Below, piece after piece: positions 1-30,589 of a stretch of 30,589 nucleotides of DNA; the stretch's first letter is position 1; the number at the start of each line of letters is the position of its first letter. The notes beneath the pieces are model-generated. The model was not told where the DNA came from, ran no database searches, and worked only from the letters and a program-made list of their open reading frames with translations. Both the position numbers and the translations under genes were made by a program. The DNA is from a virus (lineage: Duplodnaviria; Caudoviricetes), in IMG/VR virus record IMGVR_UViG_3300037479_000058, positions 1-30,589 of that record; one strand, given 5' to 3'.

Positions 1-90
1 TAACTTTGCTTTCTTTAGAGTTTTGTACCCTTCTAGCACCACTTCCTTTTTCTCAAGGTCGTAGTGTTTCACAACGTAGTTGGTATCCAT
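1..90 (-). CDS. Hypothetical protein, partial (start present; 3' end runs off left edge): MDTNYVVKHYDLEKKEVVLEGYKTLKKAKL...
   Basis: ATG at 90 on the - strand, preceded by AAAAGGAGATATAGTGT (strong SD). The frame is open to the window edge. Not in the ORF track. Confidence 0.75.
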   Translation of the reverse strand, partial: MDTNYVVKHYDLEKKEVVLEGYKTLKKAKL

Positions 91-718
91 ACACTATATC
101 TCCTTTTGTGTGTGTATGTGTGTGTGTGTTTCTTAGGTCTTACTTTCTTGCTCTTCGTTCTGCGGTTGCTTACCTGACACGCTAGTTTCGAGAAGTAGGT
201 TTTTTATGTGGTTGTCTATGTTCGGTTTTACAGTCTTTTGGTCGTTTGATAGTCTTTTTTAGTTGTCACTTCTTCCTTCTCTCCTCTTCCTCCATCTCAT
301 CTACTCCCTTTCTCATCACACCTATATATATGGCGTGTGAGGTTGGAGGATGTCAAGAGGGGGGAACGTTGCTCTAGCTTGTAGGTGAAGAAAACAAAAA
401 AGATATGTGCACGAAAACACAACAAAAACTAGACACAGCAAGTCTTTCAAGCTTCCCTTCTGACTGATGACACACTGTGTTTTATACATGTTTTTGCAGT
501 GCTACTCTTGATAAAGGACTTTCGGAAAAAGAAAAACTAGAAGTACAGTTACCTCGTACCTTAAAACAAGCAAAAGGAGGAAGGGAAGCGATGTAGTTTT
601 ACAGTGAGTACCAGACGTGGTGAGGGTTTCAGACTCTCATGAGGACCAGACCCCCGCGTAAAACTTAGTGTACTTACCTCTACACAACATAAAACCCATA
701 TCTCGTTGAGTAAAACAG
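91..718. promoter_or_regulatory. Divergent non-coding control region between the - strand genes and the + strand virion arm
   Basis: No credible ORF, and genes diverge from it. Contains TTGACA on - (351-356), a TATATATAT centre (323-331), a pyrimidine tract (269-293) and inverted repeats. Confidence 0.6.
107..129 (-). repeat. (CA)n tract in the leader of the left - strand gene
   Basis: tgtgtgtgtatgtgtgtgtgtgt on +, directly upstream (on -) of the AAAAGGAG SD. Confidence 0.9.
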
Positions 719-958
719 ATGGAAAAAGGTGAAACTGAGGAACGTGTACTTCTAAAAGTGCTAGAACGCTTAGAGAGTATAGAGTCCACTGTAAAACAGC
801 CACAAAGTATGGCTCAGTGGATACCTGTTTATGTAGCTCTGGCAGGTCTTTTTTTCGGAGCATCCAACATATACACAGGTATCATGACTCGTATAACGTT
901 ACTTGAACAGCAAGTGCAGTTAGTGAAGGAGTTAGTTATAAAGGAGAAGTCTAAATGA
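719..958 (+). CDS. Small membrane protein with one TM helix and coiled coil (possible holin or virion protein)
   Basis: 79 aa with hydrophobic stretch WIPVYVALAGLFFGASNIYTGIM. ATGA overlap with the next gene. Confidence 0.65.
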   Translation: MEKGETEERVLLKVLERLESIESTVKQPQSMAQWIPVYVALAGLFFGASNIYTGIMTRITLLEQQVQLVKELVIKEKSK

Positions 959-1155
959 ACTATGAAGAGTATAGACAGTATGTCTTTAAAAAGAAAAAAG
1001 CTGAGACAGAAGCTATGCGTAGAGAGCTAGAGTTCAAGGAAAGACAAACTTACTTAAAGCAGCTCACAGCAGTTAAAGATGCCACTGAGAGAGAAAACAA
1101 AAGACTAGCAGCTTTAGAGCAAGCTAGAAAAGCAAAGAAAAAAGGTGAAGCATGA
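955..1155 (+). CDS. Hypothetical charged coiled-coil protein
   Basis: 66 aa, SD AAGGAG upstream, ATGA coupling at both ends. Confidence 0.7.
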   Translation: MNYEEYRQYVFKKKKAETEAMRRELEFKERQTYLKQLTAVKDATERENKRLAALEQARKAKKKGEA

Positions 1156-1694
1156 GCAGAAGACGCAAACAAAAGTCATATAAAGTACAAGTACCTGGTG
1201 CCTCAGAGCCAACAAGTGCTTCAACAGAAGTAGATGATCTGAGAAACCAGTACAACACGCAGTATAGCCAACTTCAGCAGCAGTCTTTAGCAGCTGAACA
1301 AGCCTACCAAAGTCAACTAAAAAGCCTACAAAGTCAGTATGATCAACAGATAAGTTTGTTAGGAGGACAGTTAGGATCTCAGCAACAACAGTACAGTCTG
1401 TTACAGCAGCAGTTTGCTCAGCAACAAGAAAGGGCTAGACAAGAGTACGAGAAGCAGAAAAAGTACTATGATGAGTTGCTTCAAAAGCAAAAAGAGCAAG
1501 CTACTCGCGAGCAGGAGGCTAGTAGAAGAGCGCTTGCAGAAGCAGAACAAGCGCAGGGCTTACTTCAAACAGATGCTCTACAAGCTCTAGGAAGATCACA
1601 AGGGTTGTCAAAAAGCAAGTCACAGCCGCTGGTATCAAAAACTAGTTCATCAGTCACCAGAGGATCTCAGGGCTACTCTCTGTTGAGGAGATAG
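1152..1694 (+). CDS. Gln-rich coiled-coil protein, possible small virion/ejection protein
   Basis: 180 aa with a basic N-terminus and a long Q-rich helix. Translationally coupled and lies before terL. Confidence 0.7.
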   Translation: MSRRRKQKSYKVQVPGASEPTSASTEVDDLRNQYNTQYSQLQQQSLAAEQAYQSQLKSLQSQYDQQISLLGGQLGSQQQQYSLLQQQFAQQQERARQEYEKQKKYYDELLQKQKEQATREQEASRRALAEAEQAQGLLQTDALQALGRSQGLSKSKSQPLVSKTSSSVTRGSQGYSLLRR

Positions 1695-1700
1695 AAGAGT

Positions 1701-1727
1701 AAAAAAAGGGGGTTCAGGCTCCCTTTT
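1701..1727. terminator. Bidirectional intrinsic terminator-like hairpin
   Basis: A7-GGGGGT-TCAG-GCTCCC-TTTT. Confidence 0.6.
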
Positions 1728-1751
1728 CAAACTACTTATATAGAAAAACTC

Positions 1752-3494
1752 ATGATATCAGCAACCTTAGCGAACAAAAAGAAAGCCTTAGAGGATATAA
1801 CAGTCTTTGCTGAGTTGATAAACTACCAGGGCGGATGGTCTAAGTTTGCGACCATACATAAAAAGTTGGCTGGGTTTGTTACTGCACCTCAAGTGGCTAA
1901 GGTATGCCTGAGAGGTAAGTCCTATAACAAACGGCGGCTTATCCTGATGCCTCGTTCCCACCTGAAGTCCACTGTTTGTTCAGTTCTATATGTGCTTTGG
2001 CGCATCTATAGGAACCCAAACATCCGCATCTTAGTAGGAACTAACATCAAGTCCTTATCACAAGGCTTTATACGAGAGATAAGACAGTATCTAGAAGACA
2101 CAGAGCTTGGAGAAAGAGTGTGGAACAAGAGACCTCATATAGAGGGAAGACTCATCCCTATCATGGATGCTGCTGGTAGAAAGAGAAGAAGTCAAAAAGC
2201 TCTGGAGGAGGAGACAGATACTGAAGATAAAAAGCTTCTTTGGACTCTAGACGCTATACAGGTGCTGAGAAGTGCCAAGCTAAAAGAGCCAACAGTCTAC
2301 GCCACCTCGGCAGGAACGAGAGTAACTGGTCAACACTATGACCTTTTGATACTAGATGACATAGTGGACTTCGAGAACTCTTCTACAGCGGATAAGATAG
2401 ATAAGATAGTGGACTGGGCTGGTGACATGGAGTCTGTGGTAGACCCCGTCCGCAACGTTTTATGTGGTTCGTGGAGTGGTAAGTTCGGTAAACCCGAAGA
2501 ACTTTGGGAAGATGTCGGTGATGAGGTAGTTGTTTTGGGCACTAGATACACAGAAGGTGACTACTATGACTACCTGATGTGTAACATGCTTCACTTTGGA
2601 TACAGAGTTTTCTACCGCAACATCTACAGGAACGCTCAGAACTGGGTTAAGCCCTGTAAAACAGAGGACGAGTACAGACAAGATAGACGCAAGTATAAGT
2701 TAGGTGATGCTTCTGGTGGGTTTTTGTGGGAAGACAAGTTCGATGCAGAGTATATGGTAAGGTTAAAGGCACGTCTGACTGCCAAGAGATGGGCTTCTCA
2801 GTACTTAAACACCATCATCGCACCGGAAGAGACTGTGCTAGATCCTGCTAAGATAAAGTACTTTAAGAGTGGTTTAGTTGAAGCCAAAGATGGACTAGTT
2901 TATATAAAAGTACCTGAAGAGGAAGCAAAAAGAGTCATCAGACCTTTTCTAACAGTAGACCCAGCGGTAAGTCAAAACACAAGAGCAGACAACACAGCTA
3001 TCGCTGTAGGTGGTATCGACGAAGAAGGAGACATGTTTATCATAGATATGAAGGTAGGTAGGTTCTTGCCCAACCAAACTGTTGACCATGTCTTCTCGTT
3101 ACTGGAAAAGTGGAGTGCTACCAAAGTAGTCATAGAGGTAGTTGGCTTTCAACAAGCGTTAGTTTTTCAGATGAGAGACCAGATGAGGGAAAGAAAGGTT
3201 TTTCCTTTCATCATAGAACATAACCCTCAGGGCAAAGGCGAGAAGAAGGCAAGACTTGAGGCAGGCTTACAACCTTACTTTGAAAACAGAAAACTGTGGA
3301 TGGCAGACTGGTTAGCGACATATGAACAACTGCAAGACGATATCGCCCTTTTCCCTCGTGAGACCGCTAAAGATGACACACTTGACGCTTTGGACTTGGT
3401 TCGCTGTTATGGAGTTCGCGTACCTCGTGACAGTCGTAAACTTTACAGTCCCACACGCACTGCTTACAACAAGAAGTGGGGAGGCACTCGTTAG
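1752..3494 (+). CDS. terL: Terminase large subunit
   Basis: Walker A-like MPRSHLKST, Walker B LLILDD, RNase H-like nuclease motifs TVDPA and DDTLDA. Lies directly before the portal. Confidence 0.93.
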   Translation: MISATLANKKKALEDITVFAELINYQGGWSKFATIHKKLAGFVTAPQVAKVCLRGKSYNKRRLILMPRSHLKSTVCSVLYVLWRIYRNPNIRILVGTNIKSLSQGFIREIRQYLEDTELGERVWNKRPHIEGRLIPIMDAAGRKRRSQKALEEETDTEDKKLLWTLDAIQVLRSAKLKEPTVYATSAGTRVTGQHYDLLILDDIVDFENSSTADKIDKIVDWAGDMESVVDPVRNVLCGSWSGKFGKPEELWEDVGDEVVVLGTRYTEGDYYDYLMCNMLHFGYRVFYRNIYRNAQNWVKPCKTEDEYRQDRRKYKLGDASGGFLWEDKFDAEYMVRLKARLTAKRWASQYLNTIIAPEETVLDPAKIKYFKSGLVEAKDGLVYIKVPEEEAKRVIRPFLTVDPAVSQNTRADNTAIAVGGIDEEGDMFIIDMKVGRFLPNQTVDHVFSLLEKWSATKVVIEVVGFQQALVFQMRDQMRERKVFPFIIEHNPQGKGEKKARLEAGLQPYFENRKLWMADWLATYEQLQDDIALFPRETAKDDTLDALDLVRCYGVRVPRDSRKLYSPTRTAYNKKWGGTR

Positions 3495-3511
3495 AGAAGA
3501 GGCTTTAAACT

Positions 3512-5521
3512 ATGGACGTTAAGATAAAAAACTTCAACACAGTAAGAACAAGTAAAGATAAGTTGCCTGCTTCTCTAGACGAAAGCATCTACGACTTCCT
3601 CATACAAGAGAAAAACCGATATGAGGTTGGTAGGGACTCGGTACAGGACCTCTGGCTAGAAGCTTGGTCTCTTTACCTAGGAACTCCTGTAGCAGTTGAC
3701 GAGCAGCGCAAACGCACTCTTTACACTGTTGGTGAAGTCAACTCTGAGTGGAGACACAAGATATCAACAGGCAAGGCTTATGAGGTGGTGGAGACTATCC
3801 ATGGTTACTTGATGAGTGCCACTTTTCCAAACAGCGAGTGGTTCTCTATGTCTCCCAACGCACCAGGATATGCTCAGCTTGCACGAGTGGTAAGAAAGTA
3901 CTTAGCAAACAAGATGGATGAGGCGAACTTTAGAGCGCACTATGCCATGTTTTTGAGGCAGCTGCTTATAACAGGAACGTCTGTCATGGCACTTCCTTGG
4001 CGCTATGAGACTCGTCCATATAAGAAGAACGTGGTTGTAAAAAAAGTCATATACGACCCACTTATGGAAACTGAGGAAGAAGTTCGTGAGGTTGTTCAAG
4101 TAGAAGAACCTCGCCTGATAAAAAACCACCCAGAGTTTGAAACTTTAGATGTCTTCGACTGCTGGGTTGACCCGTCTGTGTGCGACCCTAACGAAGGCGG
4201 CTTTTTTAGGCGCATAGTCAAGACTCGTGCCGAAGTCATCAACTTAGCTCAACAAGGCTACTACGATGTTTCACCTCTCGACGTTATAGAAGTGCCTGCA
4301 TATAGAGGCACTGAGTCTGATGAGCAGGACTCTGTAAGACTTTTCCAAGGTATCGAGACAGATGATCCTTACTCTATGGGAGATAGAGTTGAACTGCTTG
4401 AGTTTTGGGGAGACGTACATCTAGACGGTATCACCTTCTACGATGTTTGTGCGACTATCCTAGACAAGCAGCTTATCAAGTTTCAGCCTAACGAGTTTTG
4501 GGCAGGAAAGCCTTTTGTTATAGGCTCAGCAACACCTACTCCACAGTCACCTTACTCGATAGGTGCTATCCAACCATCGATGGGTTTGCTTCATGAACTT
4601 AACATCATCACCAACCAACGTCTGGATAACATGGAGATAAACATAGATACAGTTCTCCTCGTTAGACAAGACGGCGTTCTTAACCCAGAGGATGTGTATG
4701 TCGCACCAGGTAAGACCATATATGTTACTGACCCTAGCTCAGTACAAGCTCTACAACTACCTCAGAACCAGAACATATCCTACACAGAAGCATCAGTACT
4801 GGAGCAGACCATAGACAAAAACGCTGGCACAGGGGCTATGATAAGTGCCAACACATCACGAAGCGGTGAGCGTGTTACTGCTGCCGAGATCCAAGCTACT
4901 CGTGATGCTGGTGGTAACCGTTTAAGTAACCTACAAGCACACATAGAAAGCACTTCCCTTAAGCCCATCCTCTCTCGTGTCTTTAGAAACTCACAGCAGT
5001 TTGTCACTGATGACGAGCTAGTAAGAGTTTCTGGAAGACAGGCTGGTGAGTTTAACTACTTTCGAGTTGGTGCTGATGAGCTTTGCTATGACTTTACTAT
5101 AAAACCTGTTGGTTCTGAACACGTTATCGACAGGACTAAGTATATACAAGACCGTATAAGTTTCCTTCAAGCGGTTGCACAAGTGCCTCAGATGGCTGAG
5201 CGTTTAAACTACGAGGCGATACTTTATGATATGGTACAGCACTTCGGCTTTGACGATCCTGATAGCTATGTTGTTCAGCCTTATGACCCTAACGCAACTG
5301 CTATGTCACAGTTAGCACAAGCCGCTCCTGTTGCTGCTGGAAGTTTGGTCTCACAGGCAGATGCCACATCCTTACAACAAAAGGTAAGTGAGGTGAGTCA
5401 GCCCTTGAGTGACGCAGTAGAGGCTAACTTCAAAGCTGATGGTGGTAGGGAACTTTTTAAAAACATGGTAGGTATCGAGACTAACCCGACAGAAGCAGCA
5501 CTTGAACAGGAACAACTATGA
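3512..5521 (+). CDS. Portal (head-tail connector) protein
   Basis: 669 aa between terminase and scaffold/capsid. Contains the portal-type TAAEI motif and WAGKPFV/PYSIG region. Confidence 0.88.
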   Translation: MDVKIKNFNTVRTSKDKLPASLDESIYDFLIQEKNRYEVGRDSVQDLWLEAWSLYLGTPVAVDEQRKRTLYTVGEVNSEWRHKISTGKAYEVVETIHGYLMSATFPNSEWFSMSPNAPGYAQLARVVRKYLANKMDEANFRAHYAMFLRQLLITGTSVMALPWRYETRPYKKNVVVKKVIYDPLMETEEEVREVVQVEEPRLIKNHPEFETLDVFDCWVDPSVCDPNEGGFFRRIVKTRAEVINLAQQGYYDVSPLDVIEVPAYRGTESDEQDSVRLFQGIETDDPYSMGDRVELLEFWGDVHLDGITFYDVCATILDKQLIKFQPNEFWAGKPFVIGSATPTPQSPYSIGAIQPSMGLLHELNIITNQRLDNMEINIDTVLLVRQDGVLNPEDVYVAPGKTIYVTDPSSVQALQLPQNQNISYTEASVLEQTIDKNAGTGAMISANTSRSGERVTAAEIQATRDAGGNRLSNLQAHIESTSLKPILSRVFRNSQQFVTDDELVRVSGRQAGEFNYFRVGADELCYDFTIKPVGSEHVIDRTKYIQDRISFLQAVAQVPQMAERLNYEAILYDMVQHFGFDDPDSYVVQPYDPNATAMSQLAQAAPVAAGSLVSQADATSLQQKVSEVSQPLSDAVEANFKADGGRELFKNMVGIETNPTEAALEQEQL

Positions 5522-6273
5522 CAAGCGAAAACGAAAGACCACAAGAGGCAGTTTATCTAGAAACAGCGAACGGTAACTTTATAGTTGATGACGAGGGTAG
5601 CGGTTACATACTACATAAAAACGCGCTCAAAGACGATAACTTACTTTTTGAAGAAGATAAGGCTTCTGGTGAAGCAGAGGAAGAGGCGCAACTTCCTTCT
5701 GCTGAGGAAGTAGACCTTTCTATCTTTGACGATATAGAAACTCCAGAACAAGAAGAAAAGGTCGAGGAAGAGGACAACGAACCAGAAACTCTTGAGTTTA
5801 CCAAGTTTAAGGATGACTTTAAGAAGCACTTAGGTTTAGACCTAGAAGAAGCACTTATAGCAGTTCAAGAACTTCAAAACTTAAGAGCCGAGCTTTATAT
5901 AAAAGAACAGGAACGAGATATCCAAGATAGCTGGGGAGTAGATAACGATACGTTCAAAAAACGTATGAAAGATGTGAGAGCATATGCCTTTACTTTGGCT
6001 GAAACTAAACCTGAGTTGTTTAAAAAACTGGACAACGTAGAAGGCGTGAAACTTATCTGGTCTAAGTTAGAGCAGGACAGGCAACGTGTAAGTTTACAAC
6101 AAAAGCAGGTACCAGGTATCCAACGAAACTCACAACGTACTCCAGAAGGAACATCGAAAAAGTACGAGTATACGTACTCTCAGATACAAAACATGTCTCG
6201 CACAGACTACGAGAAGAGCGCCACCCGCATAGCGCAAGCCTTCGCGTCAGGGCGTGTTGATATGAAACGATAA
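5518..6273 (+). CDS. Capsid scaffolding protein
   Basis: Acidic helical 251 aa protein between portal and capsid. C-terminal 'IQNMSRTDYEK...IAQAFASGRV' is typical of podovirus scaffolds. Confidence 0.8.
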   Translation: MTSENERPQEAVYLETANGNFIVDDEGSGYILHKNALKDDNLLFEEDKASGEAEEEAQLPSAEEVDLSIFDDIETPEQEEKVEEEDNEPETLEFTKFKDDFKKHLGLDLEEALIAVQELQNLRAELYIKEQERDIQDSWGVDNDTFKKRMKDVRAYAFTLAETKPELFKKLDNVEGVKLIWSKLEQDRQRVSLQQKQVPGIQRNSQRTPEGTSKKYEYTYSQIQNMSRTDYEKSATRIAQAFASGRVDMKR

Positions 6274-6300
6274 CCATCAAAACAACAGAGGTAACCATAT

Positions 6301-7431
6301 ATGGCTTTTAACGGAACACAGGGTACTTATAAAGGTGCGTCAGTAACTAAAGCAGTATCGAACTCCTTTATCCCAGAGCTTTGGTCAAGTGAAGTAAAGC
6401 GTGAACGTGACTTATCTTTCGTAGTATCCAAGTACACGAAGATGCTTTCAGGTCAGTTCTCTAAAGGCGACAGACTGAACATCCCGCTCATCTCTCGTGC
6501 TGCGGTAAACGCCAAGTTACCTGAAACCCCAGTCCAACTACAAGCTAGAAACGAAGGTAACTTCAACATAGATATCGACCGCTATATGGAGTCTTCTTTC
6601 ATGATCGAAGACTTGGTAGGTATCCAAGCATCCTACAACCTTCGCGGTGAGTATACGAGAGAGGCTGGATATGCCCTAGCTCGTGACATAGACAACTATG
6701 TTCTAGCTTTGCGTGCAGTTATCAACGGTACTAACTATACAGCAGGAGTACCAGCCTTCGGCACTGCTATCACTGCTGCTTGTAGCCAACGCGTTATCAG
6801 CCTAGACTCTGCTGGAACTGCCATCGCACCTATGAACTACCAAGCACTACTAGCTTCCAAGCTTATCTTAGATAAGGCTGCTGTGCCTGATAACGATAGA
6901 GTACTTATCGTAAGCCCGACTGGATATAACCAGTTACTCGCTATCGATAAGTTTATCAGTATGGACTACAGCCAGTCTGGTGGTGTTGGTTCAGGTAGAG
7001 TGGGTTCTATCTTTGGTATCCCTGTCATCATGTCCAACAACCTCGTAGCAAACAGCACCACTGGCTACTACAACGGTTCCGGTGCAACTGCACAACCAAC
7101 TCCTGGTGTAGCATCTTCGCCATACGTGCCTACTCAGGACATCTACACTGCACTGCAAACCTCTTTTGCTGCTAGTACGTTATACGGTCACTACGCTGGA
7201 ACCTTCACTACTTCTTCGACAGGTGGCGCAACTGAAGTTCATACTGCCATCATGTGTCAGAAAGACTGGGCTGTCATGGCTATACAAAAAACTCCTTCTA
7301 CTGAGTCTTCCCGTGAAACTCTGTATCTAGCGGACGCTTTAGTTAACTGTCAGCTGTATGGCGGTCGTGTATATAGACCAGATCACGCAGTAGTTATCTA
7401 CAGCAACGGGAACATCCCATCTGTAACATAA
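6301..7431 (+). CDS. Major capsid protein (HK97 fold)
   Basis: 376 aa with FIPELWSSEV N-terminal motif, GDRLNIP, GYALARDID, VPDNDRVLIVSP and C-terminal YGGRVYRPD. Followed by a terminator. Confidence 0.92.
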   Translation: MAFNGTQGTYKGASVTKAVSNSFIPELWSSEVKRERDLSFVVSKYTKMLSGQFSKGDRLNIPLISRAAVNAKLPETPVQLQARNEGNFNIDIDRYMESSFMIEDLVGIQASYNLRGEYTREAGYALARDIDNYVLALRAVINGTNYTAGVPAFGTAITAACSQRVISLDSAGTAIAPMNYQALLASKLILDKAAVPDNDRVLIVSPTGYNQLLAIDKFISMDYSQSGGVGSGRVGSIFGIPVIMSNNLVANSTTGYYNGSGATAQPTPGVASSPYVPTQDIYTALQTSFAASTLYGHYAGTFTTSSTGGATEVHTAIMCQKDWAVMAIQKTPSTESSRETLYLADALVNCQLYGGRVYRPDHAVVIYSNGNIPSVT

Positions 7432-7489: not shown

Positions 7490-8161
7490 ATGAGCGAACA
7501 GTCCTCAACTGATCTTATAACAGCAACAAACACTATACTAGAGAACATCGGGGAACGAAGAGTTCTATCGATAACAACCCCAGTGGCTAGAAAGGCGACA
7601 GTGGCGCTTCAGCAGGCAGTGTATGATATAGCTAGCCTTAACTCTTGGGAGTGGCTTAAGGAGTTTATACCAGCAGTTTCATGGGTTAACGAGAGAGCAG
7701 ATCTGGGTGATACTTCACGAGTTCATAGCGTTCAGTGGGGCAGCTCAGTAGATGGATATAGGCAGATACCTTGGATAGATCCAAGAGAGTTTGACTACTT
7801 ACCACTACAGTCCTACTCTGACTCGAACACAAAACCAAGGTTTTTCACACAAGAAACTTATAACATCGTAAAAGTGAACCCATACCCCTCGACTGCAACG
7901 GAGCAGGGTCGTATACGCTTTTATGTTACGAGAGAGATGGTTCCTCCGTACAACCCAGATGACTTTTTTCCGCTGCCTGAGAGACACATGTCCATGGTTT
8001 ACTTTAGGGCACAGCACTATCTCGCAACGTCGCATCTTGATGATAAAGAACTTGCGGCTACTTGGGGTCAGCAGTTTGATATGTACGTTCAAAGGATACG
8101 TGATAAGGAGAGGTTGGCTCCAACTTTCGGTGGTAACATCTTCAAACTACAAGGACGATAG
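7490..8161 (+). CDS. Tail adaptor / tail tubular protein A (T7 gp11-like)
   Basis: N-terminal 'LITATNTILENIGE' motif; size and position after the capsid gene. Confidence 0.75.
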   Translation: MSEQSSTDLITATNTILENIGERRVLSITTPVARKATVALQQAVYDIASLNSWEWLKEFIPAVSWVNERADLGDTSRVHSVQWGSSVDGYRQIPWIDPREFDYLPLQSYSDSNTKPRFFTQETYNIVKVNPYPSTATEQGRIRFYVTREMVPPYNPDDFFPLPERHMSMVYFRAQHYLATSHLDDKELAATWGQQFDMYVQRIRDKERLAPTFGGNIFKLQGR

Positions 8162-8163
8162 AC

Positions 8164-11358: not shown

Positions 11359-12074
11359 TGAGAGTTGAAGACGTTCTAAGGACTGTAAAACAAGCTGTCG
11401 CGATATATGAGGCTTCAAAAGAAGTTGTTGTCGCAGTTCAGACAGCTCTGAAAGCGCTAGGTTTGTACGACGACACAGTAGATGGTTTGGCTGGCAAAAA
11501 CACTCGTAAAGCTTTGAACGACTTCAAAGATAAAGAGTTCTTGGGCAGACCTGACATGCTTGGAGAAACTACAGCAGAGGCTCTTATCGAAGCCTATAGC
11601 GAACGCAAAACACCTCAGGATGTATCTAACAGCCGCATATCTCCAACTCCCTTCGCACATATCCCAGGTATCTCTCAGAGGGTTTCTACTGCATCTCTTA
11701 TCCTACCTGTAGGTCACTTTACTTGGGGTGAAGCTACTAAAGGACTAACGAGGCTTCCTGACTCTGCGTTGGTGACTACCAACATCATCAAGGTGGCTAA
11801 AGTTCTAGAGGAAGTTAGAGAACTTTTCGGTGGTAAGCCTATCATCGTTACTTCTTGGTACCGACCCGCGAAGATCAACAAAGCTGTAGGAGGAGTTTCA
11901 AACTCTCGTCACATCCTTGGTGATGCTGTAGACTTTCAGGTCAAAGGTGTTCATCCTACAGAAGTTCAGAAGAAGTTAGACAGTTGGTATGGAAGTAGAG
12001 GTGGTTTAGCTTCTGCAACTACTTTTACACATATAGATACACGAGGTTACAAAGCACGTTGGAGGTACAACTGA
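11358..12074 (+). CDS. Endolysin: peptidoglycan-binding domain + peptidase M15 (Zn)
   Basis: VQTALKALGLYDDTVDGLAGKNTRKAL is a PG-binding motif. SWYR...NKAVGGVSNSRH..GDAVD...HID matches peptidase M15. Confidence 0.88.
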   Translation: MRVEDVLRTVKQAVAIYEASKEVVVAVQTALKALGLYDDTVDGLAGKNTRKALNDFKDKEFLGRPDMLGETTAEALIEAYSERKTPQDVSNSRISPTPFAHIPGISQRVSTASLILPVGHFTWGEATKGLTRLPDSALVTTNIIKVAKVLEEVRELFGGKPIIVTSWYRPAKINKAVGGVSNSRHILGDAVDFQVKGVHPTEVQKKLDSWYGSRGGLASATTFTHIDTRGYKARWRYN

Positions 12075-12075
12075 T

Positions 12076-12435: not shown

Positions 12436-12436
12436 T

Positions 12437-13234: not shown

Positions 13235-13247
13235 GAGGACTGACATC

Positions 13248-13777: not shown

Positions 13778-13780
13778 CAT

Positions 13781-13826: not shown

Positions 13827-13886
13827 ATGTTTTGTTTAGCGTGCTTTGAAGCATGCTCCACAAGGTTAGTGTGTCACATATCTTCG

Positions 13887-15257: not shown

Positions 15258-15261
15258 ATAT

Positions 15262-21622: not shown

Positions 21623-24600
21623 ATGTTACTGAGCTGCAGCTACAAGACACCGCAAGAAAAGCCGAACAAAAAACAGCTAACTTCAGACAGAAAAGAGCAG
21701 ATAGGTAAGCGCGTAGAGCAGTTCGCTTCAAAGCTTGTTATGGCTGGCACTAAAGCTACTGACTTAGAGCTGCGTGTTGATGTTGCAAAGAAGAAGTTCG
21801 CTCATAACATCATCGACCTGCACGACATGACAGGAAAAAAAGCTAACGCATGGACGCGCTTTCTTTCAGTATCACTAGGTGAAAACATAGGAGATGCTGG
21901 CAGGTTCAGAAGGTCTTTGTATGAGAACAAACGATATGCCGAAGGCTTGCTGCATATCATAGAAAACCAAGGTATGGTTGATGCAGTCAAACCTTTTACA
22001 AAACGTTTCAGCGAGTTATCTAAGCAACGAGGAGTAAAGAGCGCTGACACAGGTAGGCTGATGACCGACTTGTTCGAGGTGGGAAGGACTCCTTTAGAAC
22101 TTCAACTTCATGGTAAGTCAGGTGCAGTTCAGGAGCTTTTACAAGCGAGAAACGAAAGATGGGTTGAAGCGATGCGTCGTGCAGGCTTCACTGATACAGA
22201 TATAGATGAGTTGGCTCTGATGGCTCATCAGGCTGGAGAGGTTTTTGACAACTTATACTCAACTATCCATGCACTAGGTAAGGAGCTTCCAGCCATAGAA
22301 AACATCGAGTACTTACCACGTATCTTCTCTCGTGAAGCTGAAGACTACTTTAGCAGCTTTAAAAAGCCAACCGCTCTACTACCTGCAGCAGGACGAGAGC
22401 CGAGACCAGACTTCACTAAGGCTAGAAGCTCAGTTTGGTACACCGCAGAAGACCACGAAGCTCTTGCTGACTTACTTGGTGTGAAGACTCACAGTCAAGT
22501 TAGTGCTGAGATAGAGTTGGCTATATCTGAAGGTAAAACTCCTCCAACCTATAACGACGTTTTTCTAGAAGACATCATATCCGATACTGCATCTTTCAAA
22601 GCATATATAGATGAAGCTCTTACAGACGAGCTAAAAGACACTCTAGTAGATGCTGGCATCATAAGCAGAGTTCCTATGACCTCCAGTGAGCTTTATGAGT
22701 GGTACTCAACCAGATACGACCTGCCCTTCAAAAGCTTTGATGAGCTTCTGGTTACTGACCCTCGTAAGATACTAGCTGGTTATGCACAAGAGTTAGACTC
22801 TCAGGCTTCAAACTGGGGCATGTTGAAGAGTGTTCGGGATCAGGGAGTTGGTAAAGGTTTCTTGGTCGATGAAGATACTGCTATATCTGAAGGTCTAGAA
22901 AACTTCACTAAAGTGTCCGAGATGAAGTCCGCAGCACTTATGAGTGAAGCTGGCATAGACTCGAACGTTTTTATGCATAAGGATGTAGCGCGCATACTCG
23001 ATACTGCTCTGACTCTTGAGAGAGACCCGTCAGCACTTAACGCGATCGCTCGTAGCTGGATGTCGGTTATGAGCTTAGTAAAAACTCAGCTACTATCAAC
23101 TCCACAGTACTCAGCCCGCATCTTTATAAGTGACGCTTTGATGTATGCAGCCCACGGTGGCGAGATGCATGAAGCAGTTACTTCTTTTCATGACCTTGGA
23201 AAGTACTTAGCACGAGGACTAAAAGCTTTTGATGATGTCAAGCCTTTCAGAGTAGTTGATGGAAAAACCATGACTCACCGTCAGTTCATGGAGTTGTTTG
23301 CCTCCAGACGCATGACAAACATCACTCCTATGTTTGACGGGGCTAAACGACCAACATCAAAGATGGAAGCACTTAACCCGTTACTAGCCGGAAACAAGAT
23401 AAGCTTGATGTCTCGTATGGTTCTTAGCAAAGAAACCATGCCAGAGATGATAGGTCAGTTTTTTAAGGAGTCTGGCTACGTTCTTTCAGACTGGATAAAA
23501 GCTATCTACCAACCTTTTGCTTTCACAGCAAACTTCATGGAGACGGCTTTTAAGTTAGGTCTGCTCAAAAGCGTAACTAAGCGAGGTGACTCTTGGGATG
23601 GTTTGCGACAAGGGCTGCGCTACGTAGCTACTATGGAAGGTGTCATCTACGACAGTGCTGACGAGGCTTTGGAGCATGTGGACAGAGCCTTCCTTACGAT
23701 GGATGATGCTGGAGAGCTGACGGGTACTGTTAGCAGATATATCGTGCCCTTCTTCTCGTATATGTGGAAGTCATCTAGTGCCATACTAAGAGATGCAGTC
23801 AGACATCCTACAAAGTACATGCAGTATGGACGCACTGCTTCCATGATCTTCGACAGGATGGAAGAGCAAAGTCAGCTTCAGCAGACTGAACTCTTTGAAC
23901 CTTTGAACAACGACATGCCTATACCAGTATATGTCGATGATAGAGGTAGGGCTGTTATGTTGACCTTAACTAACGTCCATCCTATCTTAGGCTTCACACA
24001 AAGCACTGCTAGTAACGCTGATAAGTTAGCTAGGCTTTTAGGGATACCCTTAGGAACAGAGAAAGAAGTTCAAGAGATGCTAGCAGAGAAGTACGGCATA
24101 CGAAGTGATGGCTCACCAGTCTCTCTAGCGGACAAGATGGGCGAAGTCATGCAAAGCGTGTACGGAGCGCAGTACGTCAACATCATCGCTGGTGTGGACA
24201 CACGGGGCAAGCCTTTAGACGACGAAAAGTACAACACCTTCCTAGGTATCGAAGTGTCTCAGACGACCGAGGCTTTGGTTGGTATGGTCTTCCCCCTCGT
24301 CAAAACCCTAAACAGATATAACCCCCTTGGCATGTTTGGCTCAAAAGAAGAGATAAGCAACCAAGGTCGTATAGGTTTAGACAGCGACGGCAACATAAAG
24401 TATGACGAAGGACAGTTGATACGAGAAGGAAAGCCATCAGTTTTTGGTACTGATAGAACTGACCTAGACCAAAAAGAACTTGTAAACAAGGTGACAGATA
24501 ACCCGGCAGTTTTCTTAGCACAACTTGCTGGACTATCTTTTGTCTACAACGACACGACCCGCAACTTGAAGTACACTCACCAAGATATATCAGCGACTCA

Positions 24601-24901
24601 GCGAGAGATAGCTACAGCTTGGAAGCGTTTTGACATCCAGATAAAAGAAGGTAAGTTACCAGAACGTCAACGCATCTTAGCTCTGAAGAAACAGGAAGAC
24701 TTGCTAAAACTGTACGGTGTGTTCGAGTATGACCGTCTTCGTACAGAGGCTTACATGGCTAAAAAAGGGATCACCACCAAAGAGTTTGATGTGAAGGTAC
24801 GAGAGAACAAACTCTCGCTACAAGGTATACCGCAGTTAAGTTTAAAAGAAACTTATAAAGTCCAACAAGCTATGGAGGCTTTGAGAGATGTCAACAAGTA
24901 A
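21623..24901 (+). CDS. Large internal virion (ejection) protein
   Basis: 1092 aa helical protein with YLPRIF and IVPFFSY motifs, immediately before the tail fibre. Confidence 0.7.
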   Translation: MLLSCSYKTPQEKPNKKQLTSDRKEQIGKRVEQFASKLVMAGTKATDLELRVDVAKKKFAHNIIDLHDMTGKKANAWTRFLSVSLGENIGDAGRFRRSLYENKRYAEGLLHIIENQGMVDAVKPFTKRFSELSKQRGVKSADTGRLMTDLFEVGRTPLELQLHGKSGAVQELLQARNERWVEAMRRAGFTDTDIDELALMAHQAGEVFDNLYSTIHALGKELPAIENIEYLPRIFSREAEDYFSSFKKPTALLPAAGREPRPDFTKARSSVWYTAEDHEALADLLGVKTHSQVSAEIELAISEGKTPPTYNDVFLEDIISDTASFKAYIDEALTDELKDTLVDAGIISRVPMTSSELYEWYSTRYDLPFKSFDELLVTDPRKILAGYAQELDSQASNWGMLKSVRDQGVGKGFLVDEDTAISEGLENFTKVSEMKSAALMSEAGIDSNVFMHKDVARILDTALTLERDPSALNAIARSWMSVMSLVKTQLLSTPQYSARIFISDALMYAAHGGEMHEAVTSFHDLGKYLARGLKAFDDVKPFRVVDGKTMTHRQFMELFASRRMTNITPMFDGAKRPTSKMEALNPLLAGNKISLMSRMVLSKETMPEMIGQFFKESGYVLSDWIKAIYQPFAFTANFMETAFKLGLLKSVTKRGDSWDGLRQGLRYVATMEGVIYDSADEALEHVDRAFLTMDDAGELTGTVSRYIVPFFSYMWKSSSAILRDAVRHPTKYMQYGRTASMIFDRMEEQSQLQQTELFEPLNNDMPIPVYVDDRGRAVMLTLTNVHPILGFTQSTASNADKLARLLGIPLGTEKEVQEMLAEKYGIRSDGSPVSLADKMGEVMQSVYGAQYVNIIAGVDTRGKPLDDEKYNTFLGIEVSQTTEALVGMVFPLVKTLNRYNPLGMFGSKEEISNQGRIGLDSDGNIKYDEGQLIREGKPSVFGTDRTDLDQKELVNKVTDNPAVFLAQLAGLSFVYNDTTRNLKYTHQDISATQREIATAWKRFDIQIKEGKLPERQRILALKKQEDLLKLYGVFEYDRLRTEAYMAKKGITTKEFDVKVRENKLSLQGIPQLSLKETYKVQQAMEALRDVNK

Positions 24902-26648
24902 CGTTTCAGTAGTGCGTTCAGGAACAGGGTTTACTATCGACGTAACTCTCTGCAACTTAGACCCAGACTTAACCATCAAAGACTTTTTTATACTTCATAA
25001 CGGAAGTCCATACAGCCCATATCTTGTTGACTATACAAAAACTACTGCCACTGTACTAACATACACAGGCGCATCTTTGCCATCAACTACAGTAGAAGTA
25101 CGAAGAAAAACTTCTACTTCAGTAGTACAAACAGTTAACTTTGCTTCACGTGTTTCCAGTAGTTTGTGGAACTCTGAGTTTGATAGGGTTCAGAGGCGTG
25201 CGGAAGAGTACGAGCTGAACGGTGTTGGTGCCGCCTTTAGCGGTGTTATCCCGACACCTAAGGATGACGTCTTTCCTTCAGGATGGGACGGAGATATCAC
25301 ATATCCACCAACTAGAAACGCTGTATACGATAAGTTTGTGCTTATGGCTCCCCTGGCTTCCCCAAGCCTAACGGGAGTACCACTAGCACCAACAGCAGCT
25401 AAAACCGACAGCTCAACTCAGATAGCCACTACTGCCCACGTAAAGCTAGTAGCAGCAGACTATGCTCCGCTCGCCTCGCCAACTTTTACAGGCAACCCTT
25501 CTGCACCAACAGCATCCGCTAACGACAACGATACGCAGCTTGCCACAACAGCGTTTGTTCAGCAAGAGATAAAAAACGCGATCATCGGACTCAACTCATC
25601 CGCTGGATCCACCTATACAAGAAAGAACTTTATCATGAACGGTAGGTTCGACATATGGCAACGTAACACTAGTTTTACACATACTGGAAGTTCTTCTATA
25701 CAAAGCCTATATACAGCGGACAGGTGGGGCTTATACACTGACCCTAACGGTGGGACATCTGCCACCTTCACAGTAACAAGACAAGCACACACCCTTGGTC
25801 AAACCGAGGTGGCATATAGTCCTTCCTACTACCTTCGTGTAAACAACACAACTCAAGGTACTTCTTTAGGTGCTTCATCACAACATCGTATAGGACAGAA
25901 CATAGAGAACGTAGTAAACCTAGGCGGTGAAACTGTCACTATAAGTTTCTATGCTAGATGTTCATATGCTCCAAAAACTTTAGGTGTGGAGTTAGTTCAA
26001 AGCTTCGGAACAGGCGGTAGCCCGTCTGCTACAGTGACAGGCATAGGAGGTACTCAGATAACACTTACTAGCAGCTGGGCTTTTTACAGCGTTACTGCCA
26101 ATGTCACAAGCCTTGCTGGAAAAACTATAGGCACCGATGGTTATAGAACTTCCTCACTTATCTTGGTACTTTGGTTTCAAGCAGGTTCCACTAGTGGCGT
26201 TAGGACAGGAGGTGGAGCTTTTGCTTGGGGCGGTACAGGCAACATCGATATATCCGACGTTCAGGTGGAACGTGGATCGTTTGCAACATCTATAGATCGT
26301 CGCAGCTTTAGTGAAGAGCTACACGACTGTCAGAGATACTATCAGCACAGCTATCCGTACGGAACGTTTCCTGGTGCTGCTACTACTACTGGTATGGCAA
26401 GTATCGAGGTAGGCACAGCGACAACAGGCAACCTGCGCGTAACTGGCTTTCTGCCTTGCGAGATGGTAAGGATACCAACACTGCGATCATACGACTCTGT
26501 TGGTGCTATAGACAGGCATGACAGAAACGGGACAGGTAAGTCACTGCAGTCTAACGCACCTTCTACTAAGTCTTTTCGTTTCACATCTACGGACACAACT
26601 AGCTCGACACTCATGTCTGTCCACTATACTCTAGATGCTGAGTACTAA
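24888..26648 (+). CDS. Tail fibre protein 1
   Basis: N-terminal adaptor-like region (VEVRRKT...), two 39-aa ASPTFTG.P.APT...TQ.ATTA repeats, and C-terminal KNFIMNGRFDIWQR...EELHDCQRYY domain. Confidence 0.85.
   Translation: MSTSNVSVVRSGTGFTIDVTLCNLDPDLTIKDFFILHNGSPYSPYLVDYTKTTATVLTYTGASLPSTTVEVRRKTSTSVVQTVNFASRVSSSLWNSEFDRVQRRAEEYELNGVGAAFSGVIPTPKDDVFPSGWDGDITYPPTRNAVYDKFVLMAPLASPSLTGVPLAPTAAKTDSSTQIATTAHVKLVAADYAPLASPTFTGNPSAPTASANDNDTQLATTAFVQQEIKNAIIGLNSSAGSTYTRKNFIMNGRFDIWQRNTSFTHTGSSSIQSLYTADRWGLYTDPNGGTSATFTVTRQAHTLGQTEVAYSPSYYLRVNNTTQGTSLGASSQHRIGQNIENVVNLGGETVTISFYARCSYAPKTLGVELVQSFGTGGSPSATVTGIGGTQITLTSSWAFYSVTANVTSLAGKTIGTDGYRTSSLILVLWFQAGSTSGVRTGGGAFAWGGTGNIDISDVQVERGSFATSIDRRSFSEELHDCQRYYQHSYPYGTFPGAATTTGMASIEVGTATTGNLRVTGFLPCEMVRIPTLRSYDSVGAIDRHDRNGTGKSLQSNAPSTKSFRFTSTDTTSSTLMSVHYTLDAEY
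25344..25577 (+). repeat. 2 x 117-nt (39-aa) tail fibre repeat
   Basis: Units start at 25344 (MAPLASPSLTG) and 25461 (YAPLASPTFTG). Confidence 0.8.
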
Positions 26649-26675
26649 AAAAAGATGCCCCCTACAAAAGGGGGC
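26647..26675. terminator. Hairpin between the fibre genes; U-tract only on the - strand
   Basis: A7-gat-GCCCCCT-ACAAA-AGGGGGC. Confidence 0.6.
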
Positions 26676-26734
26676 TTACTGTTAAAGACGATGTACACTC
26701 ATACGCACACACACATACATACACTTCTTTTCTT

Positions 26735-28396
26735 ATGACTTACACATCGTACTACGAGTATGCTACTAACGAAGATCTAGATGCTCTTAAAGACGACCTA
26801 TATAAAAAGGTAGCAGACACAGATAAAAAACTACATGACATAACAAAAGTTAACGCAAAGTTAACTAAGTCAGTTTATCAGACCAACCAGATAGTAAACA
26901 ACTACCTAGGTGGAACTGTTACTGACGACCCATATGGTGTGGGCTGGGACGGTGCGACAAACATCGCGCCAAGCGCAAACGCTGTTTATGATGCTTTATC
27001 CTCCACAAACTCCACAGTTAGCTCTCTATCAGCTACAGTTAACAACCACACTACCAGCATATCGCAACACGATACTGACATAGCTACTCTTTACAACAAC
27101 GTAGCGAACAAAGCTAACATATCATCTCCTACCTTTACAGGAACTCCATCTGCGCCCACAGCAACGGCAGGTACTAGCACTACACAGATAGCCACTACGG
27201 AGTTTGTAACTAATGCCTTATCTACTAAAGCTGACATAGCATCTCCTACTTTCACAGGTACTCCGTCAGCTCCTACAGCAACAGAGGGTGCTAACACAAC
27301 TCAGATAGCTACTACAGCCTTTGTGACTACAGCGGTATCTACAGGGCTTGGCACTATAAACCAGTACAGTGATGAGAAAGCTCAGGATGGTGTCGGTGGT
27401 ATACTAACAAACACAACATCCATAAACCTAACTTACAACGATGCGACTCCTTCCATGTCAGCGTCAGCTAACTTTGGCTCCAGTGCTGGTACTGTATGCC
27501 AAGGAAACGATAGTAGACTGTCTGACGCTAGAACTCCCTTATCTCACGCTTCTTCACATGCAAGTGGAGGTAGTGATGCTATAAAGCTTGATGACCTTGA
27601 GGCACCTGACGACAACACCGATCTAAACTCATCTACAACCAGACACGGGTTGTGTCCTAAGTTACCTGGTGGAACAACTACCTTTTTACGAGGCGACGGT
27701 ACTTGGGCAACTCCTTCTGGAAGTAGTGGTGCCCCATCTATATGGGACATACATAAAAGACCAACATACATGAACGAGTTCATAGGTACCAGCGGCACTG
27801 CCACTTCGCCCTTCACTGGAGCTGCTATATCGTCTGGAACCACCGCTCTCTTATCTACGTCAGAGACAAGACACCATCCAGGAGTTGTGAGACTATCCTC
27901 GTCTACTACATCAAACAGTGGATATAGATACTACATGGACACTTCTGGGTTTAGACTTGGAGGTAACGAAGCCTTTTCGTGTGTTTTCCAACTCACAACC
28001 ACTACCAACACAACAACACGTATAGGGTACTTTGACACATCTACTTCATCAGACGCTACGGACGGAGCTTATCTGGAGATAGTTGGCACTACCGCTTCTG
28101 CTAAAACATCCAACAACAGTTCCAGAACAACTAACGGAACAACATACACAGTTACAACTGGTGTGTGGTACGGGTTGTATATAACTGTTAACTCAGATGC
28201 TACAAGTGTAAACTTTACTCTTCGGTTAGACGATGGCACAGTACTGTTAAACGTAAACAACACTACTAACATACCCACTGCTTCAGGTAGAGAGACTGGA
28301 TGTGGTGTTATATCGACAAACAGTGGTACCAGTTCTGTACAGCTTATAGTTCTGGACTACATGAGCTTTGGATGGGTAGGAGACTTAACCAGATAA
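26735..28396 (+). CDS. Tail fibre protein 2
   Basis: Coiled-coil N-terminus, SPTFTGTPSAPTA repeats, HASSHASGGSDAI and FLRGDGTWA fibre motifs, beta-rich C-terminus. Confidence 0.8.
   Translation: MTYTSYYEYATNEDLDALKDDLYKKVADTDKKLHDITKVNAKLTKSVYQTNQIVNNYLGGTVTDDPYGVGWDGATNIAPSANAVYDALSSTNSTVSSLSATVNNHTTSISQHDTDIATLYNNVANKANISSPTFTGTPSAPTATAGTSTTQIATTEFVTNALSTKADIASPTFTGTPSAPTATEGANTTQIATTAFVTTAVSTGLGTINQYSDEKAQDGVGGILTNTTSINLTYNDATPSMSASANFGSSAGTVCQGNDSRLSDARTPLSHASSHASGGSDAIKLDDLEAPDDNTDLNSSTTRHGLCPKLPGGTTTFLRGDGTWATPSGSSGAPSIWDIHKRPTYMNEFIGTSGTATSPFTGAAISSGTTALLSTSETRHHPGVVRLSSSTTSNSGYRYYMDTSGFRLGGNEAFSCVFQLTTTTNTTTRIGYFDTSTSSDATDGAYLEIVGTTASAKTSNNSSRTTNGTTYTVTTGVWYGLYITVNSDATSVNFTLRLDDGTVLLNVNNTTNIPTASGRETGCGVISTNSGTSSVQLIVLDYMSFGWVGDLTR
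27110..27343 (+). repeat. 2 x 117-nt (39-aa) tail fibre repeat
   Basis: Units start at 27110 (KANISSPTFTG) and 27227 (KADIASPTFTG). Confidence 0.85.
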
Positions 28397-28676: not shown

Positions 28677-29612
28677 TTAGGCTCCTTCTTCTTTCAAAAG
28701 TTCTTCGACTTCTACTGTAGCGGATACTTCAGTCATACGTCGTAAACGTTTTAAAACTTCGTCCTTTGGTAGATAGTCAAGAACATACTCTTTAGGCTTC
28801 TTGCCATCCTGTGTTGTTTCTATCTCATACCAACAGTGCCTAAAAGGGCTGTATCGCATCGAGGCGGGGACTAGGAAGTTTCCAGTCTCTTTTCTTCTAA
28901 AAACTTCTTGCTCAACTGGTGGGCACTGTAAAGTATCGACAAGATCTTCTAACGAGGAGATAGCTCTAAGTTTAGGGATGAGCCGCTCAGCTCTTTCTAA
29001 CACCTTATCGAAGGACTCAACGTCAGGCTTGATAACCTTTATCTCGTGCGTACCTTTGTTCAAACAAACCCAGTATATAGGCAAACTCATGCAGTGCGAG
29101 TAGACAGCAGCCTGAGTCAAGTAACCTCTAGCATCATCTTGTTCTCTGATAAAGTTATAAAAGTAGTTCTGGCTCATAGTCTTTACTTCAAGCACTACTT
29201 TGCCGGATGGTGTCTCGACAGCAAGATCGATATGACCGAGAACGCCTTTGAAGTTAACTTCTGCCTGTTCGTCTAAAACTGCATACTTACATAGTTTCAT
29301 ATAGGCTTTCAAGTATGCTTCAAAAACATCTCCTGTATGAAAGACATGACGAAGTTTTGTGGTCAGAACGGAAAAGTTGTCAACACCAAGAACTGTTAAA
29401 GCTTGAAGCACTGCTGGCTTACCGAGAGAAGACACTCTTAGAGTAGCTTCTTGCTTACTAGGTTCCATAAACTGTCTTCTAAAAGACTCTGCAACCTCTT
29501 TGCCATATATCTCAGATACAGCGTCACGAGAGAAGTTAGGTTCACTGAACACGAAGTCGTTCAGCTGTTCTTCTAACCAAGACATCTCTTCATCCAGTTT
29601 TTTTGTATACAT
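28677..29612 (-). CDS. PD-(D/E)XK nuclease (Cas4/RecB-like phage exonuclease family)
   Basis: LRVSSLGK, FHTGDVFE, GHID...VLEVKT and YLTQAAVY motifs; SD TAAGGAG. Confidence 0.82.
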   Translation of the reverse strand: MYTKKLDEEMSWLEEQLNDFVFSEPNFSRDAVSEIYGKEVAESFRRQFMEPSKQEATLRVSSLGKPAVLQALTVLGVDNFSVLTTKLRHVFHTGDVFEAYLKAYMKLCKYAVLDEQAEVNFKGVLGHIDLAVETPSGKVVLEVKTMSQNYFYNFIREQDDARGYLTQAAVYSHCMSLPIYWVCLNKGTHEIKVIKPDVESFDKVLERAERLIPKLRAISSLEDLVDTLQCPPVEQEVFRRKETGNFLVPASMRYSPFRHCWYEIETTQDGKKPKEYVLDYLPKDEVLKRLRRMTEVSATVEVEELLKEEGA

Positions 29613-29629
29613 AAAAACTCCTTAGTGAT

Positions 29630-29664
29630 AAAGAAAACTCCTGCTACTAGAGTAACAGGAGTTT
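29630..29664 (-). terminator. Intrinsic terminator-like hairpin
   Basis: On -: AAACTCCTGTTACT-CT-AGTAGCAGGAGTTTT-CTTT. Confidence 0.65.
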
Positions 29665-29681
29665 GTCAGATACATCAAGTT

Positions 29682-29825
29682 TCACTTTAGGTATGTTGCA
29701 TCCCAGTCTAGAAGAGCCTTAGAAGCCTCTATAGCTGCGTAGACTCCAGCAGGGTTTTCTCTCTTGATGCAGTCGATGGCTTGCTCTAGGTACCTTAGTA
29801 TGGCTTCATGAGTTTGGTTTTTCAT
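29682..29825 (-). CDS. 47-aa hypothetical protein (MKNQTHEAILRYLEQAIDCIKRENPAGVYAAIEASKALLDWDATYLK)
   Basis: SD AGGAGG and ATGA coupling to the upstream gene. Not in the ORF track. Confidence 0.7.
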   Translation of the reverse strand: MKNQTHEAILRYLEQAIDCIKRENPAGVYAAIEASKALLDWDATYLK

Positions 29826-29968
29826 AGCTCCTCCTGACTTTCCTTTATCCAACCTAGCATGATGCGCTCAGCGATGGCATAGTCATCATACTTCTCGCTA
29901 ACTTTCTTAACATCTGGTTGCTGCAAGAACCACAACCACTCTAGTACTGTCCTCATATCTAGTTTCAT
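29822..29968 (-). CDS. 48-aa hypothetical protein (MKLDMRTVLEWLWFLQQPDVKKVSEKYDDYAIAERIMLGWIKESQEEL)
   Basis: ATGA overlaps at both ends. Not in the ORF track. Confidence 0.7.
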   Translation of the reverse strand: MKLDMRTVLEWLWFLQQPDVKKVSEKYDDYAIAERIMLGWIKESQEEL

Positions 29969-30192
29969 GATGAAACCACCCTTGCCGTTACTTTCAAAGT
30001 TTTAACTTGGAAGGCTCCGTCTGTATCAGCGAAGTCCGTAGTTATGATATCAAGCTTGATGCGGTACGTTGCTTCAAAGTCCATGTGAGACTTCATATAG
30101 TTGAAGCACTTCGTCCTAGCTGCTTCAAACAGTGCAGTCGGGTTAGGTGTGTTGGCATCAACATAGTAGCTTGTTCTAAAGTCAAAGTCCAT
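29965..30192 (-). CDS. Hypothetical protein
   Basis: 75 aa, SD CTAAGGAG. Confidence 0.72.
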   Translation of the reverse strand: MDFDFRTSYYVDANTPNPTALFEAARTKCFNYMKSHMDFEATYRIKLDIITTDFADTDGAFQVKTLKVTARVVSS

Positions 30193-30210
30193 ATAAACTC
30201 CTTAGGGTTG

Positions 30211-30247
30211 AAAGAAAAAACCCCCAGTTACTTTTTGTAACTGAGGG
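30211..30247 (-). terminator. Intrinsic terminator-like hairpin
   Basis: On -: CCCTCAGTTAC-AAAAA-GTAACTGGGGG-TTTTTTCTTT. Confidence 0.7.
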
Positions 30248-30264
30248 AGCTAAACTAGGAAAGT

Positions 30265-30549
30265 TTAGTTTAGTATGGCACACTTGATAAAACTAAGCTT
30301 AGTTTGTGCTTCAACCAGCTCCTTCTTCAGTTTAGAAACTTCAGCTTCGAGTTCATCATAGCTACCGATAAGGTCATCAACTAAGTCAGATAAGTCCTCG
30401 TTGTCTTTTTCCAAGTCTAGCATCTCAGCATGAGCTTCATCCAGTAAGTCGTCTTGATCAAGTAACAGTCCTGCGTACAGTTCAAGCTTCTTTTCTAGCT
30501 CAGCGTAGGTAGGAGCAAACTTGAAGTTAGAGAAAAAGTTAGATAGCAT
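30265..30549 (-). CDS. Acidic coiled-coil hypothetical protein
   Basis: 94 aa with heptad Leu pattern. SD AAAGGA preceded by a CA tract. Confidence 0.72.
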   Translation of the reverse strand: MLSNFFSNFKFAPTYAELEKKLELYAGLLLDQDDLLDEAHAEMLDLEKDNEDLSDLVDDLIGSYDELEAEVSKLKKELVEAQTKLSFIKCAILN

Positions 30550-30561
30550 GGTTGGTTCCTT

Positions 30562-30576
30562 TGTGTGTGTGTGTGT
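30562..30576 (-). repeat. (CA)7 tract in gene leader
   Basis: tgtgtgtgtgtgtgt on +, immediately upstream (on -) of the AAAGGA SD. Confidence 0.9.
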
Positions 30577-30589
30577 TGTTTACTTATAT

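Follow-up and report, generated by a model that had tools for sequence, protein, structure and literature searches.

We analyzed a window of 30,589 nt, positions 1 to 30,589 of IMG/VR virus record IMGVR_UViG_3300037479_000058, which is the virion arm together with the end of the replication arm of a freshwater cyanopodovirus of the Saffermanviridae, and from which the trinucleotide AAT and its complement ATT have been almost entirely lost. We describe this purge and its relation to a predicted phage nuclease family, PfWMP3_05/A4L_11, found in the early arm of relatives. The window was placed in the Saffermanviridae because its terminase large subunit, portal, scaffold and major capsid proteins match those of phages A-4L and Pf-WMP3; the set and order of the virion genes are likewise those of the family, as are the arms that converge on a Cas4-like gene (Table 1). 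The polymerase, primase-helicase and early genes lie outside the window, past whose right end public contigs extend by 3.3 and 6.5 kb. In A-4L the candidate nuclease gene is located ~8.4 kb upstream of the Cas4 gene, a position that would fall beyond the right end of the window, and a search for close relatives of the window having an intact early arm found none.

Only four AAT/ATT sites remain in the window, exactly those listed by an initial annotation made from the sequence alone, compared to 1,272 expected from base composition (688 + 584 per strand) and 801 over both strands under a first-order Markov model (410 + 390 per strand). The 1,000-1,500 sites estimated in that annotation fit the composition-only expectation, with the Markov model giving a lower figure of ~800. 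As it had also noted, neighboring words are abundant: all one-letter neighbors of AAT occur 882-1,657 times, and after AAT and ATT the lowest 3-mer on the plus strand stands at 0.72 of expectation. Among 9,673 codons, Asn is encoded by AAC 400 times and by AAT twice, and Ile by ATC or ATA 405 times and by ATT once. Before a T, none of 221 Lys, Glu and Gln codons ends in A, the majority choice elsewhere, and none of 158 Asp, Tyr and His codons ends in T. Synonymous-codon shuffles that kept the codon usage of the window gave 543 +/- 19 sites, with none of the 200 shuffles falling below 493, and the 1,601 bases of intergenic DNA hold no site against 86 expected. The purge is enforced through context-dependent synonymous codon choice and extends across intergenic DNA, so that the depletion first described at codon junctions and between genes persists against both the Markov and the codon-shuffled null. 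Strand symmetry and context-dependent codon choice also support the earlier proposal of a DNA-level agent with a 3-4-bp target.

All four surviving sites read AATG (chance ~0.01 for G and ~0.04 for any one letter), a weak hint that the AATG context is possibly cut least. Several other words are depleted in the window, with GGCC (0/95, observed/expected here and below), GAGCTC (0/21) and TTCGAA (0/10) at zero and GGWCC low; these losses, which add to the AAT purge, are the usual avoidance of sites cut by cyanobacterial restriction enzymes. GATC is only partly reduced (100/264).

Table 1 Genes and residual AAT/ATT sites of the window
Feature	Position	Strand	Remarks
Left end	1..718		Mostly non-coding, AAT/ATT-free, with a GT-repeat run
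Terminase large subunit, portal, scaffold, major capsid	1752..7431	+	Major capsid 50% identical to A-4L and 45% to Pf-WMP3
Tail tubular proteins A/B, endolysin, small virion genes, internal protein, M23 peptidase virion protein	7490..18405	+	
Large internal virion protein	18411..21620	+	ART-PolyVal-like domain at ~aa 770-905
Tail/host-specificity protein and two tail fibres	21623..28396	+	
Cas4-like exonuclease	28677..29612	-	Closes the replication arm; distinct from the candidate nuclease
Replication/early arm	29613..30589	-	Truncated
Residual AAT (AATG)	954..956	+	Overlapping stop/start junction of open reading frames 719-958 and 955-1155
Residual site (ATT on +, AATG on -)	12244..12246	-	Sole ATT Ile codon of the window, in open reading frame 12076-12435
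Residual AAT (AATG)	26100..26102	+	Within tail fibre gene
Residual AAT (AATG)	27212..27214	+	Within second tail fibre gene

The same purge was found in cultured phages. Pf-WMP3, LPP-2, PP and Lbo-JY12 retain 8, 6, 4 and 4 AAT/ATT sites, respectively, in genomes of 42-43 kb, compared to 676 in Pf-WMP4, 769 in LPP-1 and 614 in yong1, with TR020 and CHP58 likewise within a range of 614-1,339. Contigs from two public freshwater runs, which may be source samples of the record, match 20 kb of the window apart from a single substitution and some small indels close to the end. Near-identical contigs and four cultured phages with the same purge together show that it is not an artefact of assembly or recoding, the latter having been raised in the initial annotation as a possible undoing of its claim. 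The AAT purge is real, natural and recurrent, and its recurrence in the cultured Pf-WMP3 clade means that the case is not without precedent as first supposed, although a literature search at the level of titles and abstract openings found no report of the purge or of the nuclease family.

Loci matched by their portal gene formed a graded series in which the purged word was GATC only, RATC, RATY, AATC only, AATT or all AAT (R, purine; Y, pyrimidine). A-4L, for example, has lost AATC (0/209) while retaining AAT in other contexts. None of 80 control loci, consisting of the unrelated phages recovered by a DNA polymerase scan, showed purging of an AAT word. A tree built from terminase, portal and capsid placed the WMP3 clade, which has both gene and purge, as sister to TR020, which has neither (support 100), and G001, which purges RATY, as sister to CHP58 (support 81); the window grouped with the gene carriers A-4L and G005 (support 79). 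This topology implies either two origins of the full AAT purge or an intervening loss. Avoidance of GATC was relaxed in the WMP3 clade and the window (0.38-0.40 of the Markov expectation) compared to the WMP4 group (0-0.03).

Open reading frames from 20 genomes and fragments were clustered into 45 shared families, only one of which matched the purge series. This family, PfWMP3_05/A4L_11, is an unannotated small early gene with a product of ~180 aa. Of the genomes whose sequence covers the early arm, all eight that purge AAT or AATC carry it, and the only other genome to have it is G002, in which GATC is at zero. A search from family representatives returned 109 proteins. In an alignment of 99 sequences, D45 and K61 were invariant and E17, D43, S59 and E73 were conserved in at least 90%, with serine occupying the usual D/E position of the PD-(D/E)XK motif; the conserved residues are of catalytic type as judged by sequence. 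The structure model of PfWMP3_05 (predicted local distance difference test score, pLDDT, 96.6) resembled I-Ssp6803I (Z 9.9, root-mean-square deviation 3.0 over 122 aligned residues; Foldseek E 1e-4), Hjc (Z 8.9) and type II restriction enzymes (Z 6-8), and on this model the family has the PD-(D/E)XK restriction-endonuclease fold. The Pfam family RE_MjaI was matched by 19 of 99 members, below its curated cut-off. Scans of Pfam and PHROGs gave no name or function for the family, a sequence search of solved structures returned nothing significant, and the window, whose early arm lies outside it, gave no match. In all four genomes of the WMP3 clade a surviving AAT is located 10 bases upstream of the nuclease start codon, just after GGAGG (L005:3174, L008:3184, L010:3282 and L011:35316), and a second early gene is preceded by another at a distance of 21-22 bases; the AAT before the nuclease gene could possibly reflect autoregulation or constraint by expression signals.

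We next consider how closely the gene tracks the purge. With core carriers defined by a family profile score >75 bits, all 13 purged a RATY-type word. A word containing AAT was purged in 10 of 13 core carriers and in none of nine non-carriers (Fisher p 0.0005 by record), or in 7 of 10 against 0 of 6 when counted by lineage (p 0.011). Purging fragments that end before the early arm and gave no gene match (L014, L023, L029, L136, L020, L024 and L028) were left out of these counts, as were non-purging fragments (G007, L137, L140 and other short portal loci). Further carriers came to light once the family had been selected. The provirus G011, which is a different kind of tailed phage and was found solely through the motif of the gene, has lost AATT (0/305). 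In L015 the loss of AATT (0/47) was known first and the nuclease gene was shown afterwards. Two further carriers, the myovirus yong5 (GATC 0/523) and L180 (GATC 0/117), have intact AAT words, and GATC was also absent from phages with distant homologs (Wc4, 0/730; P778, 0/340; L178, 0/96). Scans with subfamily alignments for further carriers were empty, as was one motif scan, and in another motif scan four of nine loci were not family members.

Several observations weigh against assigning the purge to this gene. The family was chosen after the purge pattern was known, so the p values are optimistic and overstate the association. Three of the 13 core carriers purge GATC only, and GATC is at or near zero in four of nine non-carriers (TR020, WMP4, LPP-1 and yong1), so the GATC cases lend weak support and a separate GATC pressure exists. 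The distant homologs L172 and L173 purge no AT-core word (GATC 20/64 and 38/123), with CCGG and CGCG low instead. The nuclease tree is not grouped by motif, the AATT carriers G011 and L015 falling apart, and L137, a fragment outside the gene counts, is near the window in the tree and shows no AAT-word purge. The gene is absent from the window itself, its presence in this phage being deduced from relatives, and DNA cleavage by the family is a prediction. G011 carries a weak Dam-like methylase and a C5 methylase, ~10 and 25 kb from the nuclease gene. Laboratory hosts, moreover, are not necessarily natural hosts.

On balance, we consider it probable that the purge is the footprint of a methylase-free phage endonuclease that attacks non-self DNA, with the phage protected by lacking the site. 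The missing early arm of the window phage would encode a nuclease of the PfWMP3_05/A4L_11 type, as its relatives do, and this early protein would be made soon after phage entry. It is predicted to read the word 5'-[R]AT[Y]-3', with the stringency at the outer positions differing by lineage, and to cut or nick DNA containing it. The spacing of AAT sites in host DNA would be about 25 bp, as estimated from base frequencies, while absence of the word from the phage genome would provide self-protection; the purpose may be to break up the host chromosome at an early stage or to destroy the DNA of competing phages. G005 loses AATC and keeps AATT and GATC, a pattern impossible for a symmetric dimer, which suggests asymmetric binding and probably a monomeric nickase. 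We further hypothesize, with somewhat less assurance, that these proteins constitute an orphan phage endonuclease family whose specificity has drifted among GATC, RATC, RATY, AATC, AATT and AAT, and which tells self from non-self not by modification but by genome-wide loss of a word, amounting to restriction run by the virus.

The family appears not to belong to type II restriction-modification, as no methylase was found beside the nuclease gene and no core member in the cyanobacterial genomes searched. No methylase was detected among the scanned open reading frames of G001, G005, G006 and L015, where a divergent one could be missed (the scan covered 90 of 116 listed frames of these four and G011), or in the record annotations of Pf-WMP3, A-4L, LPP-2, PP, JY12 and yong5. 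Nor would a palindromic type IIP enzyme account for the purge patterns, in which AAT, AATC and RATC are asymmetric. The candidate family has a fold and catalytic-type motif in common with I-Ssp6803I, Hjc, PvuII, DpnI, MspI, HinP1I and Pfam RE_MjaI, with an identity of at most 24% to the solved PD-(D/E)XK structures among these.

Phage nucleases are known to take part in host-chromosome destruction, as in the case of T4 endonuclease II and T7 endonuclease I. T4 shields its own DNA with modified bases and T7 endonuclease I is specific for DNA structure, and to our knowledge neither phage relies on a word missing genome-wide. A close likeness is to the endonucleases of chloroviruses (CviJI, RGCY; the nickases Nt.CviPII, CCD, and the RAG nickase), which are described as virus-encoded enzymes with 2-4-bp sites, some of them nicking, and with a presumed role in breaking down host chromatin at an early stage of infection (PMC7019647). 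In that account they come with partner methyltransferases and are carried in the particles of a virus that infects eukaryotic algae, whereas the candidate family is an early phage gene next to which no methylase was found, and self-protection would apparently come from absence of the site. Avoidance of restriction sites is likewise a strand-symmetric loss of short sites, and Rusinov et al. (2018) reported a deficit of GATC in each of the 46 phages infecting hosts that encode the enzyme (PMC6286503). There the agent is a host enzyme, whereas here a 3-bp asymmetric word tracks a phage gene; that text mentions neither AATT nor cyanophages, nor enzymes encoded by phages.

The initial annotation had left two branches, a phage enzyme that spares its own AAT-free genome and a host defence, and of these the first has gained a named candidate gene while the second has lost ground. 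A host defence that reads AAT, be it a very-short-site nuclease, a DarT-like DNA ADP-ribosyltransferase or a requirement resembling that for a protospacer-adjacent motif, with the phage nuclease a passenger, now appears unlikely. Classical site avoidance is at work in the same genomes, where GGCC, GGWCC and many palindromic 6-mers are at zero, and GATC is lost also from phages that have no nuclease gene, both of which are as a host-driven process would have it. However, LPP-1 and LPP-2 have the same host on record, Leptolyngbya boryana IU 594, and differ fully (769 and 6 sites), which points to a phage-borne agent. The Nostoc phages A1 and N1, which presumably share a host with A-4L although the records name different strains, keep AATC (637 and 702 sites in the first 50 kb) whereas A-4L has none. 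The purged word also changes between sister lineages along with the gene. Cyanobacterial DNA is rich in AAT words, as seen in L167 and in the first 1.2 kb of G005, which looks like host flank with its WD40 gene and holds 12 AATC/GATT sites against two in the remaining 37 kb, so a host enzyme would need protection of its own. Finally, a search of 401 cyanobacterial genomes gave three weak matches to the nuclease family (25-36 bits), one of them on a contig with GATC 0/101, and no core member.

It is still less probable that another phage enzyme is responsible, the contenders being the ART-PolyVal-like domain, Cas4, an endonuclease overprinted on the helicase gene and a dATP/dGTP diphosphohydrolase. 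The first has the attraction of lying in the window itself (20670-21200), with H-Y-E-type motifs in its sequence and a score of 0.92 to ART-PolyVal clusters, a recognition below threshold, and specificity may have drifted within a universal gene. It is, however, present in the non-purgers TR020, WMP4, LPP-1, yong1, CHP58 and G004 and was undetected in the purgers A-4L, G006 and G011. The domain is common to most of the family, in a protein labeled 'ParB-like partition nuclease' by PHROGs, and the WMP4 and LPP-1 versions of that protein have a second ART domain of the NAD:arginine type. The overprinted endonuclease (phrog_945), read in another frame of the primase-helicase gene (L005:8070-8690, L003:9469-9939) and annotated in A-4L but not in Pf-WMP3, was rejected because WMP4, LPP-1, CHP58 and G004 carry it. 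Cas4 is family-wide and gave no profile match to the candidate nuclease family. The diphosphohydrolase domain (L005:12316-13395, L003:12780-13076, L141:9135-10142) co-occurs with the nuclease in complete Saffermanviridae genomes, where one may speculate that it disposes of the nucleotides released when host DNA is degraded, and it was undetected in G011 and yong5. A family common to TR020 and the WMP4 group was considered as a GATC cutter and set aside for its poor alignment and lack of nuclease signal.

A cause acting on RNA or translation, either an AAU-cutting mRNA interferase or a codon bias driven by tRNA, has very little to recommend it. AAT and ATT are both codons and both nearly unused, and AAU-specific MazF variants exist. 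Yet the word and its complement are both gone from the coding strand, from codon junctions and from intergenic DNA, and codon choice depends on the next base; the strand symmetry largely refutes this explanation. Mutational bias or artificial recoding can be dismissed as next to impossible given the abundance of one-letter neighbors, the matching natural contigs and the purge in four cultured isolates, which by themselves refute recoding.

Some further features were noted. A GT dinucleotide run (window 107-128) resembles a CA-rich terminal stretch of the WMP3 clade. The endolysin (window 11358-12074) combines a peptidoglycan-binding domain with an M15 peptidase, most members of the family having a different one, and its nearest relatives are enzymes of Microcystis phages (36%) and one from a Chroococcales genome (42%). 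In L015 and L029, AATT and GGCC are at zero and AGCC/GGCT stands at ~0.05-0.1 of expectation, which suggests a second short-site pressure. The unrelated phage loci L176 and L177 show a broad avoidance of 4-bp palindromes, with ACGT and AGCT at zero and AATT, CTAG and GCGC low.

The gene named here is testable in the cultured phages Pf-WMP3, LPP-2, PP and A-4L. If a methylase-free phage endonuclease is indeed behind the purge, self/non-self discrimination would need neither methylation nor base modification, and the word missing from a phage would predict the site of its enzyme. It would also follow that a phage is able to rid its genome of a 3-bp word, at the cost of ~800 sites and the near loss of two codons, in order to carry one 180-aa weapon. 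More than 100 naturally occurring versions of an enzyme that cuts or nicks at very short sites would then be at hand, with specificities that may be readable from the genomes, and some of what is taken for restriction-site avoidance in phages, that of GATC included, may be self-inflicted rather than host-driven.

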